Origin: a virus
Lineage: Duplodnaviria; Heunggongvirae; Uroviricota; Caudoviricetes
IMG/VR virus record: IMGVR_UViG_2737471859_000003
Length of the DNA stretch: 25,277 nucleotides
Direction: 5' to 3' (one strand)
The notes beneath the pieces were generated by a model. The model was not told where the DNA came from, ran no database searches, and saw nothing but the letters and a program-made list of their open reading frames with translations. Below are positions 7,872 to 24,221 of the stretch, piece after piece. A program made the position numbers and the translations under genes. Each line of letters begins with the position of its first letter. Position 1 is the stretch's first letter.

Positions 7872-8924
7872 TTAGCTGTCGGCGAACTTCAGGCCAGTGA
7901 CCATCGCGCACTTGCCATAGTCTTCAACGACATAAGCGTCATTGATGGACTGGTAGGTGGCGATGCGGTTGTATTCCGGTTCGTCTTTCATCAGACGACG
8001 CATTGAACCTTTCTGCCAGTAAATCGACAGGTTGTTGAACGAGGTGATCAGCATCGTTGAATCCGGGAAGAACGGCGCAAGGAACACGCCCAGCCCGCCA
8101 ATGGTGCGCGATGACAGAATGAGCTGCCCGGCGAGTAATTCCGCATTAGGATTCTGGCCGCTGATGCTGTTCAGCACGGGCAGACGCAGCGAGTTAAACA
8201 GGTTGCGCCCCATAATCACCACGAGGTCGTCAGCTTCCTTGTGCCATTCATCCAGCAGGGATGAGCGCGCGTCCTGTACCAGTGCATCAGCGTTCGCATA
8301 CTTACCCGCGTGCGCCACGGTGTTGTCCATGTTACGGGAGGTCAGCGTCACGTCATTCATAACGCGTTCGCTGGCGTCGGTTCTGATGTGCTCCAGCCAC
8401 CCCACGTTAACGTCCTGAAGCAACTTGTTGGTGCTGAAGTTGGACTCATCCGCGTGAGACGTGCCGTTGAAACCGATCATGATGCGGTCAAGCGCCACCT
8501 GTCGGGCAATCTGTGCGCTGATGCGGGACTGAAAATCAGGGTGTGCCGACCAGGCATCAAGCTGCGGATACGAAATAAACGTGTCGTAGTTCACCTGTTC
8601 ACACTGGTATTTGCGGTTTTTCAGATCAACCACGTTATTCGGGTTACGGCGTTTTGTGCCGTCATAACTGGTATTCGTGCGCGCAATCGGTCCTGTGGTA
8701 TCCAGGAGGATTTTTTCGCCTTTCTGGTCGGTCACGCCGATCACGTTAATTCTTTTCGTAAATTCGGTACTTTCCTTTGAGGCGTTTTCAAAACGCTGCT
8801 GCACCGCGGGTTCCACGGTAAATCGCGATACCAGTGCGGAAACCGGAATATTATTAAGCGACGCCTGCTGCGCCATATAGCAACCCAGCTTGTTGCGGGT
8901 AATATCTGACATCACCAGATTCAT
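7872..8924 (-). CDS. N: Major capsid protein, P2 gpN-like
   Basis: 350 aa; FTVEP, GEKI, NKYxC, YVVEDY and LSIY segments align with P2 gpN as I recall it. Confidence 0.9.
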   Translation of the reverse strand: MNLVMSDITRNKLGCYMAQQASLNNIPVSALVSRFTVEPAVQQRFENASKESTEFTKRINVIGVTDQKGEKILLDTTGPIARTNTSYDGTKRRNPNNVVDLKNRKYQCEQVNYDTFISYPQLDAWSAHPDFQSRISAQIARQVALDRIMIGFNGTSHADESNFSTNKLLQDVNVGWLEHIRTDASERVMNDVTLTSRNMDNTVAHAGKYANADALVQDARSSLLDEWHKEADDLVVIMGRNLFNSLRLPVLNSISGQNPNAELLAGQLILSSRTIGGLGVFLAPFFPDSTMLITSFNNLSIYWQKGSMRRLMKDEPEYNRIATYQSINDAYVVEDYGKCAMVTGLKFADS

Positions 8925-13843: not shown

Positions 13844-16069
13844 TTACGAACGAATAGGAATTGATGTTTGCGGTTGAATTGGCACGAGCACCTGATTATA
13901 AGTACGTAAAATTTCGTTATACAGGTCTTGGTGCTTTGATGCCTTAATGGTAATTATAAGAGCATACTTGATTTTTTCTGCCTTATGGCTGGCTATGCTT
14001 GCACCGGCCTCACGAGCGTTATAATGAATGTCAAATACAGGATTTTTTAGAGTTGAACCTAGCATGTTCTTCGAATTATGTAAGACGGTCTCCCATTTGC
14101 CCATGTCAGAACGTCGCTCACTTTCAGTTGAATATTTGGCCAGTTCAAAGAATCCCTTGGTTTCAGCATTTTGTTTTCCGTCTTTGATTTTTGAATCATT
14201 TGGCCGGAATGTCACTTCCAAACCAGCTTTTGTATAGGAAGCTGGGTCTTGTGGATCAGTGGTTGTTGCATAACAGAAAGTTGCCGCTAAGTTTATTCTA
14301 CCTTTCAAGCCACCTTCAGGTATTGGAAGAGGAGCGCGTAAGTATTTTCCTGGTTTCAATTCACCTTGGTAGACGATACGGGCAACACCATCAGGGCTGA
14401 CTATAATGTCGTTCAAGTCTTCAGGAAGTTTTCCCCAGCCAACTTCTGTACAAGGATGATCAAGCTGTTTTGACGCATGAATTAACAAAGCTTTGATTGC
14501 TAGTAGGCTCAAATCGTTCCCTAAAATTGCCCGAACACCAACAGCTGCTCGTAAGGCGTAAGGAGAGGCAAAGCTTGTTCCTAGCTGGGGTATGATTACA
14601 GGCTTCTTACCTTTACCTAAAACATGAAAGTACTCGTCTGTGTCACCACCAAACGCAACTAAATCCGGTTTCATCACGCCAGGACTTCTGCCTGGCCCAA
14701 TGGCGCTATATGGTGCTCGTTTCCATTCCGTATCATTAACTGTATCACAAGCACCAACAGCAAGAGCATTAACGCAATCGGCTGGTACTTGAATTCTTGC
14801 ATTACCAGACTTGCGATCCATTTCTCCATTGTTGCCAACAGCAACAGTCATTAATGTTTCACCATCACTTAACAAATCATCAATAACGGAAGTCCATGCA
14901 TGAACTTCCGTATCTTCAATTGGTAGGTCTGGACCTAAACTTAGATTGATAAACTGATACTGGCGAGACAACAATACCTCTTCAATAAAGCCCAAAGTTC
15001 GATATAGTTCCAGCGGATCTTCTTGGCAGGTCTTGTTGTCCAAAACTCTTAAGTTATCAATATAAGAGTATGGTCTTTTCGCTTCCGATTTATTACTTAT
15101 TGGTCCAAATAAAAAGGCTGAAGACACAGCTAAACCATGCTCTAAACCGTCTGGATCATCCTCTGCATGATCGTCCAAAACTCTATAGGATTTTAACCAT
15201 GGCGATATAGCGTGCTCTGATGGTAAACCACCATCAAGAATCGCAACTTTTATTTCTGAAGATACGGGGCCCTCAGCAGGCAATTTACACTGAGCTAAAG
15301 GACCGTAGTTCCTTTGTATTGGTCTAATCCCACGCAATCTTGGAACCGGTCTTATTACTCGTACAAATGTAAATTTCGCAAGCTTACTAATAGTAATTCT
15401 ATCGGCCTGGATTGGCACGAACCATAATGTACCAGCGGTAAAAGCTAATGAAGTATGTACTTTGATGTTCAAATTTGATGCAAACTGAACAAATTGTTGC
15501 TGAACCAAGTCTTGTTCATTATCTGGCAGTAAATGAACACCAACCTCAAAATACGAAGAATCCTGCTCACCAATGGTAATAATACGCTCTTCGGGTAAAT
15601 AGGCATCGAACCGTTCTATGCGTGCAAAATCAATCGCTTCGTCAGAAAACTCTTTGAGTCCTGACACCCAATGAGGTAACTCTTTGAAGGATTCTCTTTT
15701 ACCAGCAACAAACATTTGTGTCGTAGTTACTTCTGACACAGTAACTTTTCGCTTCCAGCTTTGAGGCGTAATTTTTACCGTCCTGCTGCCAATAGACGTT
15801 AACCCGGTAGACTTAAGCATTTTTGCAGGAAAAAAAGAGCGTGCAATATAGCTCGGATTCAACGTCAACTTAGCCACAGCATAATCATAAGGACATGCCT
15901 GACTGGGTAAATCATCAAAATTTTCTATAGTAGATGCAATTTGCGGCAATAACCGTTGTTTCGATTCGTAAAGAGAATAAACCTCAGCTTTTCCGGGCAC
16001 TCTTTTAGGACCAGGAATATCGCTGGTTAATAATTCGCCGCGTCCAATCAGAAAATTAGTTTTCGCCAT
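13844..16069 (-). CDS. Subtilisin-like (peptidase S8) serine protease, 741 aa, with N- and C-terminal extensions of unknown function; tentatively IetS-like
   Basis: Catalytic triad motifs in subtilase order: Asp in VAILDGG, His in EHGLAVSS, Ser in GTSFASP. AAGGAG Shine-Dalgarno 5 nt before the ATG. AT-rich codon usage unlike the phage backbone. Confidence 0.8.
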   Translation of the reverse strand: MAKTNFLIGRGELLTSDIPGPKRVPGKAEVYSLYESKQRLLPQIASTIENFDDLPSQACPYDYAVAKLTLNPSYIARSFFPAKMLKSTGLTSIGSRTVKITPQSWKRKVTVSEVTTTQMFVAGKRESFKELPHWVSGLKEFSDEAIDFARIERFDAYLPEERIITIGEQDSSYFEVGVHLLPDNEQDLVQQQFVQFASNLNIKVHTSLAFTAGTLWFVPIQADRITISKLAKFTFVRVIRPVPRLRGIRPIQRNYGPLAQCKLPAEGPVSSEIKVAILDGGLPSEHAISPWLKSYRVLDDHAEDDPDGLEHGLAVSSAFLFGPISNKSEAKRPYSYIDNLRVLDNKTCQEDPLELYRTLGFIEEVLLSRQYQFINLSLGPDLPIEDTEVHAWTSVIDDLLSDGETLMTVAVGNNGEMDRKSGNARIQVPADCVNALAVGACDTVNDTEWKRAPYSAIGPGRSPGVMKPDLVAFGGDTDEYFHVLGKGKKPVIIPQLGTSFASPYALRAAVGVRAILGNDLSLLAIKALLIHASKQLDHPCTEVGWGKLPEDLNDIIVSPDGVARIVYQGELKPGKYLRAPLPIPEGGLKGRINLAATFCYATTTDPQDPASYTKAGLEVTFRPNDSKIKDGKQNAETKGFFELAKYSTESERRSDMGKWETVLHNSKNMLGSTLKNPVFDIHYNAREAGASIASHKAEKIKYALIITIKASKHQDLYNEILRTYNQVLVPIQPQTSIPIRS

Positions 16070-16092
16070 ACATACTCCTTATCTATGCTGTA

Positions 16093-17214
16093 TTACATTT
16101 TTTGACTGTATTTTCTAATTGTATCCCTACTGACTCCGGTTAAGTCTGATATGGCATGCTGGGATAATTTAGAATTTCTTTTTAGAGTAACTGCAATTTC
16201 TTTACGTTCATTCCTGTCTAATTCTGATAAACCATCTTTAATGAACGACCCAATCAACTCTTCATCTGAGGAAATACCTAAAGCGACCGAACGTCGGAAT
16301 TTGTTGATAGAACGCTCAATATTACTAAAAGATTCATTTTTGAACATAATAGCCAGTAGATCTATCCAACGTGCAAAAATCGCGTAGTCGGGACCTGAAA
16401 AGCGTTTAATTGCTTCTTTAATACTTTCGCTATCTGGCTTCTCAAAATTGAGCACTAAATCAAAACGTCTCCATAGTGCTGGATCAATCAACTCAGCGAA
16501 GTTAGTTGCAGCAAGTAACAAACTAGAAGACGGCCATTCGTCAACCTCCTGGAGTATTACGGTAACAAGTCTTTTTAATTCTCCAACATCAGAATCATCA
16601 CTTCTCTTTTTGGCGATTGAATCAATTTCATCTAACAGAAGAACGCACGGCCCTTTCTTCGCAAAATCTAGAGCTGCCCGAAGGTTATTTCCGCTTTTGC
16701 CCAGATAGCTGCTCATTACTGCCGTTAAATCAAGAACGTAAAAAGGAACCCCTAATTTCTGAGCTAACCAGCTTGCCGTAAGTGTTTTACCTACACCCGG
16801 AGGGCCAACAAAAATGGCAGAGCGTGTTGGTTGTAAGCCGAGAGTCTTGAGGCGATCGATGTGCTTCCGCTCAAGAATAATTTGATCCAGTGAGTCTTCT
16901 ATCTGACTGGACAGTAGAGGTTTGCTCACAATCTTTTCATTTGGTGCTTTAAGCAAGGTAAGCCTTGACTCCTCGTCCACAGGCATGGTTTGAGGCAGCG
17001 CTTGTTTTGGTGCGGTAACCTTACGCAGGCTTTGTGCAGGCTTTTGCGGTTTATTTCGTAGATAAAGATCAAGCTGCTCGGATAGAGCAGGCATAGTTTC
17101 CCGATATTTACGCACCAAGCGAGCGACATATAACCGAACGTCATCATACTGTTCAGTTATTACCAGTCTAACTAGTTGGGCTAAATCTGACTGAATACCA
17201 CCTAAGTCGCCCAT
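16093..17214 (-). CDS. Classical AAA+ ATPase, 373 aa; tentatively IetA-like
   Basis: Walker A GPPGVGKT, Walker B LLLDEID, sensor-1 / second-region-of-homology LLLAATNFAELIDPALWRRFD. The extreme C-terminus LSQHAISDLTGVSRDTIRKY looks like a helix-turn-helix. 23-nt gap to the protease gene suggests an operon. Confidence 0.8.
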   Translation of the reverse strand: MGDLGGIQSDLAQLVRLVITEQYDDVRLYVARLVRKYRETMPALSEQLDLYLRNKPQKPAQSLRKVTAPKQALPQTMPVDEESRLTLLKAPNEKIVSKPLLSSQIEDSLDQIILERKHIDRLKTLGLQPTRSAIFVGPPGVGKTLTASWLAQKLGVPFYVLDLTAVMSSYLGKSGNNLRAALDFAKKGPCVLLLDEIDSIAKKRSDDSDVGELKRLVTVILQEVDEWPSSSLLLAATNFAELIDPALWRRFDLVLNFEKPDSESIKEAIKRFSGPDYAIFARWIDLLAIMFKNESFSNIERSINKFRRSVALGISSDEELIGSFIKDGLSELDRNERKEIAVTLKRNSKLSQHAISDLTGVSRDTIRKYSQKM

Positions 17215-17394: not shown

Positions 17395-20178
17395 TTATTT
17401 TTTCTTCTCGCTATTGCCTTTGTCCTGCAACAGACCCGCCTTGTGACGTGCGCGTTCAGTGGTTTCATTGATTCTCTGTGCGTGCTCTGCGTCACGGATG
17501 GCGCGCAGCATGTCAGAAAGCACGGTAACGGGAGTTTTCATGGTGTTCTGGTCCTGCTGAATTGTGGATGCCAGGCGTGCAGCGGCTTCAGGGTCTGATG
17601 CCCCGAGCTGTTTCAGATAGCTGGAAACCGGGTTATGGCGGATTTCCGTGCTGTTTACGCCGTGATTACGGCTCAGGCGCTGCCAGAGCTGCGTGATTCG
17701 GCTGTCCGGTCGGGTATCTGGTTTGCGTACAATTTCAAATCCCTGCGGTGCAATGATGCTGCCGTCAACGTACAGACTGCCGCCTCGTAACAGGTGCTGC
17801 ATCTGCTGTTCACCGATATGCAGGCCGAGAGATTCGGCAGATTCCCGCCATTCTTTAGCGAGTAATTCGTGGTTATCAGGCAAAGGCCGCTGCTGTTTGC
17901 GGCTCTGTGTCCAGCTCTGCATTTCATCACTGCTGTTTTTTGCCTGTTTGTCACGAAGCGAACGCATCAGCGCCCGGCGTTCGTGCCGTTTCAGTGAGCG
18001 CATCCATTCGTTCACTTCAACGCCGTCAGGGAGCTGCGGCCACGGTGCTGGCCGTTCTTCCGGCTGTTCTGTCCCGTTGTTGTCCGTTTCCTGTACACGG
18101 GGACAGTTATTGCCACGAGTCCAAGGGGCGGCAGAGCCGCCCTGAAGGTCAAAACCATTTTCGTGGGTGCTGTCTTCCGCTTCCGGTTTACGTCTTACCA
18201 GCTTCCAGTTATCCGGGTGCGTGCACACACGGGAGGATTCCCCGATGAGTGGCGACCAGATCCCGTAAATCTGTACACTCTGTTCGCCGTAATCGTTCAG
18301 CTCATCTGCGAGGTCGTAGGCTGTGCGAATCAGGTAGTCCTTGCGCGGAACAAGTACGCCACCCTGTTTTTCAATGTAGGTGGCAAAACACCCGGCATCA
18401 GCGGCAGCAAGAACCGCATCCATTGCGTCATCCTTCAGCCGTTGCGGGCCCTCCGGGTTGCGTGCCATCTGGCTGGCAAGGCGGCGGAGTTCACGCCACA
18501 CCTGACGGGAGGGGATGCCAAAGAACTGGAACTGGCGGACCCGGTGAAGGCGCGCCCAGCCGATGGCGCGCTCCACGCTCTCGGCCATTGATTTTCCGGT
18601 TTCGTGGTCAACGCGTGGCTTGCCCGTTTTCGGGTCGATGCCATCTACGGCGCGGCTGTCCAGGTTTTTTCCGATGTAGGTCGCGATATAGCTGGTTGGT
18701 GTGCCTTTTGAGCCGTCGACATACTCCGCCTTAAAGCGCGGAGTAATATCATCGCCCAGTTCGTGACGATCTTCCTGAATGGCAATATCGCGGGTGATGG
18801 CCACGATGCTGTCGATTTCTTCCGGATGAGCAAAGACCATCATATGCCAGTGCACGGTGCCGTCATGGTGAGGCTCCACCGTGCGGATGCCATACCAGCG
18901 CAGGCCGTCGCGGTTCAGTTTTTTGCGGACCGCCGCAAAAAACGTGTTAACCAGGTAATCGCTGGAGTCGCGCATGGTGGCCCCGTTCCATTTGGGATTC
19001 GGATGACCGTTCTCCGTTGTTGCGTGGTATTTTGACGGGCAGGTGACAGTCAGAAACACCGCTTTGTCACCACGGGCTTCGGCCAGAAGTTCCAGCCCCT
19101 TCATGGTGGCCATCATTTCTGCCTTACGGTGAACCGGGTTACTTACTCCCGCGTAATACACTGTCTCGAGATCAATCGTGAACCCGTCTTCATTTTCCAG
19201 CATGAAACTTTTCAGGAAATCGCGTGTTTTCTCGCGCTGTGCGCGAAATTCACTTAATGCGTCCTGGCTCAGATAGGGTGATGTTTTTCTGGAAACCAGA
19301 CAGGCGGCGCGAAGTTGTTCTTCTCTCCACTCGCAACGTAAAAGCCACAGTTTGCGTTTCCACCATTCCGCACAGGTCAGGCGAAGGATTGCACCCGGCA
19401 GCAGTTCCGTGTCCGGTTCGTTCCTCCGGTCTTTGTCTGTTGTCAGTGCGTCATAATGCGGAGGCATGGCGTGCAGGTGTAACGCCATGCGGGCCAGCAT
19501 CTGATACGCCTTCAGCGTTACATCCATGGTCAGCTCGCCATCAGTCGCACCAAAGCCATCGCAGAGCTTTTCGAAGGTGCTGCTGAACATCGCCGCCGTC
19601 ATGGTGGCCAGCGTCTGTATCTGGTGTTTGTTGAGCTGCGGCAGGTAAAGCAAATCGTCCAGGCGTTCGCGTCCGGCAATGGAGCGATAACCCGGTGTCA
19701 GCCAGCGGCTGTCGGTGCGGTCCAGACGTCCGAATATTTTGCGCAGGGTTCCGCGTGCATAGCGTTCCGCCTGCCAGCTCTTTTTGCCTTTCTGGCGATC
19801 GGCTTCCTGTTTTTTGCGCAGGAAAGAGAGGTGGCGGCTCAGTGGTTCACGCAGATAAACAGGTAGTGCCTTTAGTGTGGCAAAGGCACGGGCTACCGGG
19901 TCTTGTTCTGTTGCCCGGCGCTTACTGATGATGCTCTGTGCCAGCTTTTCACGCTGTCCGGCTTCCTCAAGGGATGCCATGAGTTTTTTACCCATGGCGG
20001 ATTGTGCGAAAAAGGCTTCTTCCTTCGCTTCCTGTTCTTCCTGTGCCCTTTTGTCCGCCTCAAGGTAGTAACGGATGGCGCGTTGCAGGTCGGTTTCAGT
20101 TTCCTGCCTGCGCTCCGTAAATCTGGCCGGATCAATGGCTGGCCGTGGTTCATTCCAGCTCCATGCAAACTCACTCAT
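17395..20178 (-). CDS. A: Replication initiation endonuclease (rolling-circle, HUH-type), P2 gpA-like
   Basis: ATG at 20178 (MSEFAWSWNEP...) overlaps the upstream gene stop (ATGA). HUH motif in TVHWHMMVF and paired tyrosines in SYIATYIGKN, as in P2/phiX174 A proteins. ~927 aa versus ~761 aa in P2. Confidence 0.8.
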   Translation of the reverse strand: MSEFAWSWNEPRPAIDPARFTERRQETETDLQRAIRYYLEADKRAQEEQEAKEEAFFAQSAMGKKLMASLEEAGQREKLAQSIISKRRATEQDPVARAFATLKALPVYLREPLSRHLSFLRKKQEADRQKGKKSWQAERYARGTLRKIFGRLDRTDSRWLTPGYRSIAGRERLDDLLYLPQLNKHQIQTLATMTAAMFSSTFEKLCDGFGATDGELTMDVTLKAYQMLARMALHLHAMPPHYDALTTDKDRRNEPDTELLPGAILRLTCAEWWKRKLWLLRCEWREEQLRAACLVSRKTSPYLSQDALSEFRAQREKTRDFLKSFMLENEDGFTIDLETVYYAGVSNPVHRKAEMMATMKGLELLAEARGDKAVFLTVTCPSKYHATTENGHPNPKWNGATMRDSSDYLVNTFFAAVRKKLNRDGLRWYGIRTVEPHHDGTVHWHMMVFAHPEEIDSIVAITRDIAIQEDRHELGDDITPRFKAEYVDGSKGTPTSYIATYIGKNLDSRAVDGIDPKTGKPRVDHETGKSMAESVERAIGWARLHRVRQFQFFGIPSRQVWRELRRLASQMARNPEGPQRLKDDAMDAVLAAADAGCFATYIEKQGGVLVPRKDYLIRTAYDLADELNDYGEQSVQIYGIWSPLIGESSRVCTHPDNWKLVRRKPEAEDSTHENGFDLQGGSAAPWTRGNNCPRVQETDNNGTEQPEERPAPWPQLPDGVEVNEWMRSLKRHERRALMRSLRDKQAKNSSDEMQSWTQSRKQQRPLPDNHELLAKEWRESAESLGLHIGEQQMQHLLRGGSLYVDGSIIAPQGFEIVRKPDTRPDSRITQLWQRLSRNHGVNSTEIRHNPVSSYLKQLGASDPEAAARLASTIQQDQNTMKTPVTVLSDMLRAIRDAEHAQRINETTERARHKAGLLQDKGNSEKKK

Positions 20179-20564
20179 GGCTGGTATCCCGTCACGCGCT
20201 GCCACTCCTGCGAGAAGATGGCGGAAAGGCGGTTAAATTCAGCGGTGTATTCACTCAGCGAGGCACACCCGCCAGCAGTGCGATGCGCCAGCATTGCCGC
20301 AAATACGGAGGCCGGGGAGTCATAATACGCCAGCAGTGATTCGCCGTGTGGTGTCAGGCAGTGCAACGCCAGCCCGTGTGGTGTGAAATCCACGCGGTAG
20401 CAGTCGTCTACTGTGAAATAAAGGGTGTCCGCATTCTCCGGTTTTGTGGTGCGTGCTCTGTTGTCACGACCACGGATGTAGAGATCAAATAATCCCTGAA
20501 GAATGGGAGCCAGACGGGTGTCCTGTGTGCGCACCCATCTTGTGAAGTCATGAGCGTCAATCAT
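20175..20564 (-). CDS. Hypothetical early-operon protein (129 aa)
   Basis: ATG start; stop overlaps the A start codon, implying translational coupling; no family recognised. Confidence 0.55.
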   Translation of the reverse strand: MIDAHDFTRWVRTQDTRLAPILQGLFDLYIRGRDNRARTTKPENADTLYFTVDDCYRVDFTPHGLALHCLTPHGESLLAYYDSPASVFAAMLAHRTAGGCASLSEYTAEFNRLSAIFSQEWQRVTGYQP

Positions 20565-20636
20565 GCTGCAATTCTCTTTACTACAGGTGTGCGAAGGCCT
20601 CCCGCCGCAAGGTGCAGGAAAGGCCTGGAACAGGAA

Positions 20637-20867
20637 TTAATGGAGTTTGTTTTGCTGCTGAAAGAGCTGCTGAAGCTCGCGCAGATCATCCGCCAGATAG
20701 CTGAAAACAGCGGATGAATAGAGGTTTGAAAGTTCGCAGCTACGCTCATGCAGCATATTGATGTGCATGATTTTAGCGACGCGGAATGCGCGGGAAAGTC
20801 TGCGGTTGATTTCAGTCTGGATGTGACGACGCTCCGCGATAGCGCGGTGCTGTTTGCGGTTTGCCAT
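20637..20867 (-). CDS. Hypothetical small basic protein (76 aa)
   Basis: ATG at 20867 with an AGAGG upstream; the overlapping 206-aa track ORF in another frame is low-complexity and was rejected. Confidence 0.5.
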   Translation of the reverse strand: MANRKQHRAIAERRHIQTEINRRLSRAFRVAKIMHINMLHERSCELSNLYSSAVFSYLADDLRELQQLFQQQNKLH

Positions 20868-21192
20868 GGTGTTTGGCCTCTTCGTTTGTGAGTTTTTGGA
20901 TACTCACCAACCAGAGTTGAGAATCTCGGGGTGGCGAGACGTACGGGGTTCTCAACACCGGCAAACGAAGAAACCGGCCCGACCGAAGTCGGCCCCGTAC
21001 GCCCCACCATAATTCGTGTGCGAAAAAGACGTGGCAATACAGTACGCACAAAAAAACCGCTGGCGCGGTTGTGCGCTTCGTTTGTCAGCAGGTTGAGAAT
21101 CCCGGCACCCGTTTTATGAGGTGCAGCAGAAATGTAACCTGACTGATTGCGGCATGGCAAGCGGTTTTTTTGTGTGTGCATGCTCTGATTTC
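20868..21192. other. ~325-bp structured non-coding region in the early operon (candidate regulatory site or small RNA)
   Basis: GTTGAGAATCYCGG occurs at ~20916 and ~21092 as a direct repeat; the first copy pairs with GTTCTCAAC at ~20949; GTACGGGG and CCCCGTAC are inverted ~45 nt apart; an imperfect long hairpin around AACCGCTGGCGCGGTT lies at ~21045-21075 next to A/T runs. Confidence 0.4.
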
Positions 21193-21492
21193 TTACTGGT
21201 TCAGAAAAAAATCAAAAACCTTGTCAATGCGTTGCAACAGCTCTTGCTGTATTGCTTCCGGCGTTTCCGGTTCGCCTGGCGCCTCCAATGTCGCGCAGAA
21301 ATCAGCGATTTCATGATGGAGCGTCAGGCGAATGGCAGGAGCCGTGGTTCTGGCGTGCTCCAGCTCATCCAGCAATGCCAGCACCGCAGACGGCGAGAGC
21401 ATTGCGCGAAATGCCAGTAATTTTTGAGGTGTTGCCATTCGTTGCAGGGCAAATGCCAGTTCGCGTAGCTTCTGGTGGTTGATGGTGCTCAT
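21193..21492 (-). CDS. Hypothetical early-operon protein (99 aa)
   Basis: ATG start; start overlaps the stop of the upstream 88-aa gene. Confidence 0.5.
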   Translation of the reverse strand: MSTINHQKLRELAFALQRMATPQKLLAFRAMLSPSAVLALLDELEHARTTAPAIRLTLHHEIADFCATLEAPGEPETPEAIQQELLQRIDKVFDFFLNQ

Positions 21493-23823: not shown

Positions 23824-23918
23824 GTGATAATCTCCCTGTTTGGGGTATTTCTTGCGACGGATGCCCCAAATCAAACTCATTTGTATAAACATTAATACAG
23901 ACGTTGGAGAATTGCAAC
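23824..23918. promoter_or_regulatory. Immunity switch region: divergent early (Pe) and repressor (Pc) promoters with putative operators
   Basis: 95-bp gap between divergent cox and C. Contains inverted repeat TTTGGGG...CCCCAAA with arms ~18 nt apart. Confidence 0.6.
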
Positions 23919-24221
23919 ATGCGTATGACTATTGGAGAGCGCATAAAAATCATGCGTGAAAGCGAGAGACTTACTAGCCTCCCGGATACAGCAAAAATGC
24001 TTGGTTTAAACCGTGATGCTCTGTGGAGATATGAAAGCGGTAAAACTATCCCTAATGCTGAAGTAATTGAGCAAATACTAAACAACCCCAGATTTGAGAA
24101 ATATGCGTTGTGGTTTATGACTGGAAAAATTGCGCCTGAATCCGGGCAGATAGCTCCGGCTCTCGCACACTATGGGCAAGAGCCAACGGACTTACCCCCA
24201 TCCGAAAGGAAAATTGGTTAA
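23919..24221 (+). CDS. C: Immunity repressor, P2 C-like
   Basis: ATG at 23919, 8 nt after GGAGA. YALWFMTGKIAPESGQIAPALAHYGQE closely matches P2 C (YTLWFMTNQIAPESGQIAPALAHFGQN) as I recall it. Confidence 0.85.
   Translation: MRMTIGERIKIMRESERLTSLPDTAKMLGLNRDALWRYESGKTIPNAEVIEQILNNPRFEKYALWFMTGKIAPESGQIAPALAHYGQEPTDLPPSERKIG

Follow-up and report, generated by a model that had tools for sequence, protein, structure and literature searches.

An IsrK/C4-type antisense RNA cassette in the early operon of a P88-like, P2-family prophage

The c4 antisense RNA of the immI region of phages P1 and P7, reportedly described by Citron and Schuster in 1990, is said to control icd-ant through sites arranged as a1 b1, a' b' and a2 b2. 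In P1 and P7, this RNA is processed by RNase P, its b' element occludes the ribosome-binding site of the target and its a' element gives specificity (PMC5320573, PMC12197685). The c4 and c4-a1b1 motifs have been catalogued (PMC2864571), and the IsrK/C4 RNAs of enterobacterial prophages are the counterparts of the seqA/CI RNA in P4, as well as of the P1, P7 and N15 c4 systems (PMC3632133). The P4 cassette is composed of seqA, the CI RNA (seqB) and seqC, and controls the left operon (kil, epsilon, alpha). Its promoter is PLE, located directly upstream of the leader. The CI RNA acts mainly through premature transcription termination and not through a simple translational block (PMC4825925, PMC3632133). 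For N15, the anti-immunity region, as summarised in the citing paper, comprises a CA RNA, an icd-like gene and antA/B/C (Ravin et al. 1999, cited in PMC3632133). A different picture has been drawn for the Salmonella prophage Gifsy-1, where IsrK promotes translation of the downstream 'orf45'/anrP in trans, and where its toxicity was not relieved by constitutive expression of the C4-equivalent region (PMC4825925).

The locus described here belongs to a viral record (IMGVR_UViG_2737471859_000003) of 25,277 nucleotides, the whole of which is called the window below. It is a P2-family prophage whose nearest phage records are P88-like Xuanwuvirus genomes, with 86-92% identity. Its minus strand carries, from the right end, the integrase, an HTH repressor and Cox, followed by a series of small ORFs, and positions 20868-21192 form a gap between two minus-strand genes. 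The C repressor of the prophage is located at 23904-24221. This gap is occupied by a known kind of element, an immunity cassette of the P1/P7 immI, P4 seqA-CI-seqC and N15 type. Our analysis establishes its family membership, its structure, the positions of all six pairing sites and their co-variation. The features, in the order in which they are met on the minus strand, are:

21492..21193, minus strand: 99-aa Ead/Ea22-like ORF bordering the gap
21157..21177, minus strand: A-tract arm ACACACAAAAAAACCGCTTGC, left edge of the conserved cassette
21131..21160, minus strand: predicted sigma-70 promoter P(isrK), TTGCCA (TTCGCA-type), 18-nt spacer, TACATT
21124..21050, minus strand: IsrK-like RNA, equivalent to P4 seqA and to the P1 a1b1 leader (Rfam RF01394)
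21092..21105, minus strand: a1 site CCGGGATTCTCAAC, the right-hand direct repeat, co-varying with a'
21076..21084, minus strand: b1 site CAAACGAAG, co-varying with b'
21070..21050, minus strand: intrinsic terminator AACCGCGCCAGCGGTT with its U7 tract (terminator scan, Rfam 3' hairpin, fold)
21014..20927, minus strand: C4-type antisense RNA (Rfam RF01695)
20962..20971, minus strand: b' element UCUUCGUUUG, loop of the second C4 hairpin, complementary to b1 and b2
20944..20956, minus strand: a' element GUUGAGAACCCCG, inverted copy of the repeat, complementary to a1 and a2
20916..20929, minus strand: a2 site CCGAGATTCTCAAC, the left-hand direct repeat, immediately 3' of C4
20888..20907, minus strand: small hairpin GTGAGT...ACTCAC between a2 and b2, read from the sequence
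20877..20888, minus strand: b2 site CAAACGAAGAGG, containing the Shine-Dalgarno AAGAGG
20637..20867, minus strand: 76-aa 'derepression protein', homologue of P4 epsilon (Pfam PF25738, BLASTP, RefSeq name)
20175..20564, minus strand: ORF129 (phrog_3237, 201 bits)
17395..20178, minus strand: gpA replication endonuclease (Pfam Phage_GPA, 437.9 bits; the RefSeq start maps to 20178)

The same pair of isrK and C4 matches is found in P1, P4, N15, ST64B, Stx-converting phages and P88. In P1 (NC_005856) the order is that of the window, where the promoter is a predicted one, with similar spacings: the constitutive promoter P51b is followed by a1, b1, C4 and a2, then by b2, which overlies the ribosome-binding site, and by the first ORF. 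As in P1 and P7, whose heteroimmunity lies in a'/b', these elements would carry specificity in the window. The two differ in backbone, that of P1 against that of a P2-family myovirus, and in what the cassette governs: icd-ant1/2 in P1, whereas in the window the cassette is placed inside the early operon and is followed by the epsilon-like protein, ORF129 and gpA. The P1 leader scores 35 bits on isrK and 51.0 on c4-a1b1, whereas the leader of the window is a terminated IsrK-type RNA. After RNase P processing P1 C4 measures about 77 nt, against 79 nt for the mature form predicted here. P4 presents the same succession of isrK (8692..8615), C4 (8507..8420), epsilon homologue and replication protein. 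However, its two RNAs are separated by 107 nt instead of 35 nt, extra ORFs precede epsilon, the replication protein is the alpha primase-helicase and not a gpA nickase, and its a/b sequences are different. P4 orf151 is also unrelated to ORF129: no similarity was detected between the two, and the relatives found for ORF129 are those of its PHROG family.

Outside the P88 group, N15 is the nearest system by DNA sequence, with 74% identity along 197 nt. It has both Rfam matches and the same a-site core TTCTCAA, but another b site (TACAAGAAG against CAAACGAAG), gp32, gp31 and Ant downstream, and a linear plasmid-prophage backbone. The Gifsy-1 locus IsrK/STnc1160 ('orf45')/AnrP resembles that of the window by its isrK family RNA, its leaky intrinsic terminator, its processed RNA of about 80 nt, its antirepressor-type gene and the complementarity of IsrK to downstream RNA. 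It differs by a lambdoid instead of a P2-like backbone and by the published model, which has IsrK as a trans activator and takes the C4-equivalent for a coding orf45 (PMC4825925).

An earlier note on this DNA, made from the letters alone, had described the gap as a highly structured stretch, free of credible ORFs and bounded by direct repeats about 175 bp apart, and had put forward a small regulatory RNA among its possible functions. We agree that it contains no credible ORF: the sole long one overlaps the next gene out of frame, with a sub-threshold Pfam match. Dyad symmetry is dense (17 inverted-repeat pairs within 900 bp). The repeat GTTGAGAATCYCGG is present twice, 176 bp apart from start to start, its 14-mer copies being GTTGAGAATCTCGG at 20916-20929 and GTTGAGAATCCCGG at 21092-21105 (plus-strand coordinates). 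These copies cannot be regarded as boundaries of the island, as both lie inside the gap: read along the minus strand, the right-hand gene is 48 bp away and the left-hand one 87 bp. With up to 2 mismatches, the 14-mer pattern is matched 3 times in the window, where 0.23 matches would be expected; none of 100 shuffles reached that number. The third copy, overlooked in the note, is inverted and located at 20943-20956. A second triad, CTTCGTTTG/CAAACGAAG, had also been missed; beyond its members at 20880-20888, 20962-20970 and 21076-21084, the 25-kb window contains no exact copy. When other possible trans targets of a'/b' were looked for in the rest of the window, no a or b motif was found: both are confined to the locus.

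The Rfam search and RNA folding proposed in the note bore out the small regulatory RNA and revealed two families, C4 and isrK, both matched in full length, above the gathering score and on the minus strand; they are the sole Rfam matches in the 25-kb window. The C4 match (RF01695) reaches 79.2 bits for a gathering score of 45 (E 1.8e-15, model positions 1-87 of 87), which exceeds the scores of P1 (68.8) and P4 (74.9) themselves. The 79-nt core folds on the minus strand with -48.1 kcal/mol (z = -4.98, none of 200 shuffles being as good), and more weakly, with -35.3 kcal/mol, on the opposite strand. Both the minimum-energy fold and the centroid fold reproduce the family consensus exactly, a long closing stem around two hairpins. 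Taking the register from P1 C4 (L009, our P1 locus, 344-420), the mature C4 is predicted at 21008..20930, from GGU... to ...CCACC. With its AAUUAU leader, GGU 5' end and ...CCACC 3' end the precursor is compatible with cleavage by RNase P, for which GGW is the described motif (PMC5320573). The single-stranded core of a', GUUGAGAA (20956..20949), is found directly 3' of the second hairpin.

The isrK match (RF01394) reaches 62.0 bits for a gathering score of 50 (E 1.7e-12, model positions 1-77 of 77). The RNA consists of a 5' hairpin, a1, b1 and an intrinsic terminator, and the full-length match covers the family features, namely the 5' hairpin, the middle hairpin and the Rho-independent terminator. 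The terminator hairpin with its U7 was also detected by a separate terminator scan; the internal terminator envisaged in the note was right in part, as the end of the isrK-like RNA. The c4-a1b1 model (RF03163, gathering score 46.7) matched nothing in the window when E was relaxed to 10, nor did it match P88-like loci with E limited to 0.01; the leader of the window fits the isrK model, which overlaps c4-a1b1.

The promoter P(isrK), with a predicted start at the G at 21124, has weak hexamers (9 of 12 consensus matches in a consensus scan). In the six sequences read (the window, P1, P4, N15, PA2 and ST64B), a -10-like hexamer ends 6 nt before the start of the isrK model, and its P1 counterpart (L009 219-224) is the annotated P1c4/P51b -10. 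It is this positional homology that points to the predicted promoter. The A-tract arm at 21157-21177 is 90% complementary to 21044-21064. Despite differing upstream junctions, more than 80 P88-like loci share it unchanged, bar one substitution in a single locus (L102), and the isrK terminator is, like the arm, essentially invariant among them. In equilibrium folds, transcripts that contain the arm lose the isrK terminator hairpin. The arm may be an UP element, or else an anti-terminator partner of the isrK terminator.

How the sites co-vary was followed in two sets of sequences. The first is an alignment of 17 phages (A1). For the second, IMG/VR was scanned with the 76-aa protein, which gave 80 P88-like loci, and 33 distinct upstream sequences were aligned (A2). 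Genome contigs, with one genome per species, contributed 3 related loci, and the variants were taken from viral contigs. All 17 phages contain the exact complement of their a' heptamer, both at isrK position 26-27 and 1-8 nt past C4, although the heptamer takes 13 sequence forms among them. In A1, 86.7% of the a1-a' and b1-b' positions are paired, versus 55.9% in shuffles and 29-53% in slid controls, with compensatory changes in 15 of the 17 pairs. MAFFT set the downstream sites of A1 out of register between groups, so that a2 and b2 were judged from an alignment-free own-against-other matrix and from A2. In the all-against-all matrix, the complement of a' was found downstream in 16/17 phages for their own a' versus 13/272 for foreign ones, and that of b' in 14/17 versus 14/272, the foreign matches coming mostly from phages with an identical core. 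Among the 33 P88-like variants, pairing amounts to 95.7% for a1-a'/b1-b' and 93.5% for a'-a2/b'-b2, versus 26-54% in slid controls. There, b1-b' is paired in 100% of the cells, and b'-b2 in 95.3%, with compensatory changes in 6 of its 11 pairs. The six sites represent 21% of the columns and 49% of the entropy on a nearly invariant scaffold.

Both downstream sites occupy the positions known from P1, a2 corresponding to L009 424-430 and b2 to L009 453-460, with icd starting at 471; the a'-a2 pairs co-vary. The a'-a2 duplex has 8 contiguous pairs. The b'-b2 duplex, of 10 pairs, or 12 if two G-U are included, covers AAGAGG, whose end is 9 nt upstream of the ATG at 20867. A stem like the small hairpin between the two sites is visible in relatives. 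Since the layout reproduces the annotated P1 order a1, b1, C4, a2, b2, icd, the direct repeat is a1 plus a2, that is, two mRNA sites pairing with a'.

The first gene after the cassette encodes a 76-aa protein matching the Pfam family Derepression (PF25738), though by a narrow margin (29.3 bits for a cut-off of 27), and P4 epsilon by BLASTP (29% identity over 66 aa, E 1e-8). RefSeq names its product 'derepression protein', and in the P4 annotation epsilon is the protein derepressing the P2 prophage. A search of solved structures with the 76-aa protein gave nothing meaningful, and the downstream proteins had no NCBIfam matches. The stop codon of ORF129 overlaps the gpA start (ATGA), and gpA is the last gene of the operon downstream of the cassette. 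In relatives, C4 is followed by an antirepressor gene (Ant, Rha or BRO type) or by a short leader ORF such as icd or kil; in Gifsy-1, the post-C4 gene encodes the antirepressor AnrP (PMC4825925).

Taken together, we consider it very probable that the minus strand of the island expresses an immunity cassette of the IsrK/C4 antisense-RNA type, in which C4 blocks the epsilon-like gene. P(isrK), at 21160..21131, would direct transcription from about 21124, and most transcripts would end at the hairpin-U7 at 21070..21050, giving an IsrK-like RNA of about 75 nt that carries a1 and b1. The C4 precursor would be carried by read-through transcripts and by those coming from the C-repressed early promoter upstream. 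On the analogy of P1 and P7, RNase P would cut before the GGU at 21008 and release a cloverleaf-like RNA of about 79 nt, in which a hairpin loop displays b' and the unpaired stretch next to it displays a'. This RNA would pair with a2 (20929..20916) and b2 (20888..20877) of the mRNA; the b'-b2 duplex would mask the Shine-Dalgarno and leave the epsilon-like gene untranslated, and premature Rho-dependent termination on the untranslated mRNA would hold down ORF129 and gpA as well. The a1/b1 sites present in IsrK and in the leader would offer alternative partners to C4, as a decoy or a modulator. Finally, the a/b sequences, which differ among near-identical prophages, would set the specificity of this RNA immunity. 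We infer the processing, the sign of regulation, the polarity on gpA and the antirepressor role of the epsilon-like protein from P1, P7, P4, N15 and Gifsy-1. Hfq binding and discrete accumulation of the IsrK-like RNA are likewise predicted as traits of its family, and the repression in trans of an antirepressor or lytic function, giving immunity, as a trait of the C4 family. The trans activation described in Gifsy-1, read together with the complementarity of a1/b1, suggests that IsrK is an anti-antisense decoy.

Two other modes of action can be proposed for the same RNAs. As in P4, the C4-like RNA could pair with a1/b1 and a2/b2 on the nascent transcript and provoke premature termination before the epsilon-like gene and gpA, its chief role then being to keep gpA off in the lysogen, with translational occlusion as a secondary effect. 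We regard this as possible but somewhat doubtful. The order isrK, C4, epsilon homologue and replication protein is that of P4, where the termination mechanism has been summarised (PMC4825925, PMC3632133), the upstream and downstream site pairs are both kept by co-variation, and the annotation of 186 records terminators acting on untranslated gene A transcripts. However, the terminator scan revealed no intrinsic terminator between C4 and the ATG at 20867, its sole match past the isrK terminator, at 20986..20974, being within the C4 hairpins, and the location of b2 over the Shine-Dalgarno, as in P1, fits translational control. The two mechanisms are in any case compatible with each other. Alternatively, the IsrK-like RNA could act in trans on the read-through transcript, as proposed for Gifsy-1, remodelling its structure and activating translation, while 'C4' would be a cis-inhibitory structure. 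The 62-bit isrK match with its own terminator, the complementarity of a1/b1 to a'/b', by which IsrK could titrate or unfold C4, and the 139-fold activation of anrP translation shown experimentally in Gifsy-1 (PMC4825925) speak for this reading, which we nevertheless hold to be unlikely. Indeed, a2/b2 co-vary with a'/b' as strongly as a1/b1 do, which is predicted for a repressing C4-mRNA duplex and would be needless if IsrK-C4 pairing alone mattered. Against the Gifsy-1 model, the co-variation of these sequences thus supports such a duplex. Moreover, the genetics of P1, P7 and N15, as reported in the citing papers, make C4-type RNAs repressors (cited in PMC3632133, PMC5320573). Activation of the Gifsy-1 kind is best seen as an added layer, with IsrK as anti-antisense, and not as a replacement.

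Readings that dispense with an antisense RNA fare much worse. That the region codes for a protein of the 'Ash family', or another small protein, with incidental repeats, might be thought from a 206-aa ORF that spans the gap (20561..21181, minus strand) and has a Phage_ASH match of 20.3 bits, and from the CDS drawn in some records: 'similar to ash family protein' in PV468777, a minus-strand hypothetical in P88, gene 32 in N15 and 'cI' in P4. This match is below the Pfam cut-off of 26 and was the only one obtained when the ORF and four other ORFs of the gap were compared with Pfam. The existing annotations conflict even over the strand, P4 'cI' is an RNA gene according to the P4 literature as relayed by PMC4825925 and PMC3632133, and translations of this RNA region seem to underlie the Ash family itself. 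We reject the coding hypothesis, which appears extremely improbable, because the ORF overlaps the epsilon-like gene in another frame, because the relatives contain indels (net frame-shifting in L069 of A2), and because the substitutions are compensatory for RNA pairing and not synonymous. Scarcely any credit can be given either to the footprint of an inserted element or to an array of protein-binding sites, both of which the note had contemplated, the repeats being in the one case target-site duplications or ends of a small MITE-like element and the dyads in the other an array of DNA sites recognised by a protein. Copies of a 14-bp direct repeat set 176 bp apart, dense dyads and the lack of the region in P2 and 186 could evoke such structures. 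But a third, inverted copy is located between the direct ones, and all three change together while their flanks are fixed. The layout is identical in the unrelated backbones of P1, P4, N15 and lambdoid phages, as expected of a1/a2 targets of an antisense RNA encoded between them, and on these two observations we reject the insertion. The comparison with P2-like phages suggested in the note leads to the same conclusion, as P2 and 186 lack the whole cassette with the epsilon-like gene and not merely the inter-repeat stretch. As for a binding array, the sites co-vary as RNA pairs, and the edge G-U pairs of b'-b2 (e.g. columns 166-260, in 26 of 33 sequences) are valid only in minus-strand RNA, which argues against DNA sites.

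In P2 and 186, neither of the two Rfam RNAs was found and no epsilon-like gene precedes A. The antirepressor of phage 186 is the LexA-controlled Tum, and P2 is not known to have an antirepressor. An epsilon-like antirepressor, and probably gpA too, under antisense-RNA control would represent a third control route beside these two, and antisense control of an antirepressor would bear on the induction of very common prophages. The mechanism invoked for the island is a textbook one in phages, and no new principle is implied. On the other hand, its setting, the early operon of P88-like (Xuanwuvirus) P2-family prophages, seems undescribed: our literature search, in a limited collection, returned no paper on an IsrK/C4 cassette in P88-like phages, which is weak evidence of absence.

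A broader reading would join three ideas: the cassette gates the epsilon-like antirepressor together with the essential gpA within the early operon, the isrK terminator is bypassed in an arm-dependent way, and the a/b types result from diversifying selection. The arm at 21157-21177 may let early-promoter transcripts pass the isrK terminator, where P(isrK) transcripts would stop. Because the satellite P4 and a lineage of the helper type share an isrK-C4-epsilon cassette, the a/b variety could reflect diversifying selection. We give this combination, absent from the literature searched, as a speculation whose truth as a whole seems to us quite improbable; if true, it would mean that co-resident P2-like prophages and P4-like satellites compete over immunity at the level of RNA.

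Of 5426 complete E. coli genomes, 1291, about a quarter, contain some form of the cassette, and only 10 records have at least 99% identity to the region of the window; E. coli TUM1880 and GPEC548 carry this variant with 100% identity. The P88-like variants comprise 5 a-types and 13-14 b-types in 17 a/b combinations, of which that of the window (a = TTCTCAAC, b = CAAACGAAG) is a minority type. These 17 combinations on a nearly invariant scaffold offer a natural set for the study of heteroimmunity and for designable RNA regulators. The cassette is unannotated in the two RefSeq records inspected and is sometimes covered by spurious CDS calls, while GenBank LC710661 annotates both RNAs side by side.

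Upstream of the promoter of the IsrK/C4 antisense-RNA immunity cassette lies a 21-nt arm, ACACACAAAAAAACCGCTTGC (window 21157-21177), which displays 90% complementarity to the 3′ half of the isrK terminator together with its U tract (21044-21064). In equilibrium folds, transcripts containing this arm lose the isrK terminator hairpin. The arm is unchanged in more than 80 P88-like loci, apart from one substitution (in L102), despite their differing upstream junctions. The arm may act as an anti-terminator whose effect depends on the promoter, or may be no more than the A-tract of an UP element.

Another complementary stretch, GGTTGGTGAG (window 20901-20910, minus strand), is situated between a2 and b2, the pairing sites that follow C4. 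Its partner is the 3′ strand of the stem that closes C4, to which it is complementary at 8 of 9 positions in the window as against 9 of 9 in N15 and P4. Such complementarity is found in N15, P4 and also PA2. In an unprocessed transcript, this stretch could form an alternative hairpin presenting a2 in the loop.

The spacer between isrK and C4 also contains a second promoter-like site:

21009-21037, minus strand: TTGCCA, 17 nt, AATTAT, matching 9 of 12 consensus positions

The conserved C4 leader, AAUUAU, supplies its -10 hexamer. The site is probably fortuitous, because the -35 is not kept in P88 or phiSM.

ORFs overlapping the IsrK/C4 RNA genes match Pfam PF10554 (Phage_ASH, ‘Ash protein family’):

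P4 (L007) 8168-8584: the old ‘cI’ ORF, 59.7 bits
N15 (L003) 2600-2890: gene 32, 28 bits
Window 20561-21181, minus strand: a spurious 206-aa ORF, 20.3 bits

This family may be largely translated RNA sequence.

Further downstream in the operon, the replication endonuclease gene gpA (window 17395-20205) has a longest ORF of 936 aa, compared with 761 aa for P2 gpA; the RefSeq call is of about 927 aa, from an ATG at 20178. The Phage_GPA domain is confined to residues 194-518, and the protein therefore carries long additional N- and C-terminal regions. Directly 3′ of gpA is an IetA/IetS anti-phage defence pair (window 13844-17214, minus strand):

16093..17214, minus strand: IetA AAA ATPase, PADLOC IetA match of 260 bits
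13844..16069, minus strand: IetS subtilase, PADLOC IetS match of 175 bits

P88 instead carries ParM-like partition genes at this position, and for this reason the site just downstream of gpA looks like a variable cargo slot.

Two other Rfam RNAs were encountered in the related loci:

Phage phi191 (L013) 2523-2606: sRNA-Xcc1, 79.6 bits, between a Rha-like gene and an antirepressor gene
P88-like phage PV468777 (L001) 14-148: STnc130, 137 bits, adjoining the integrase end
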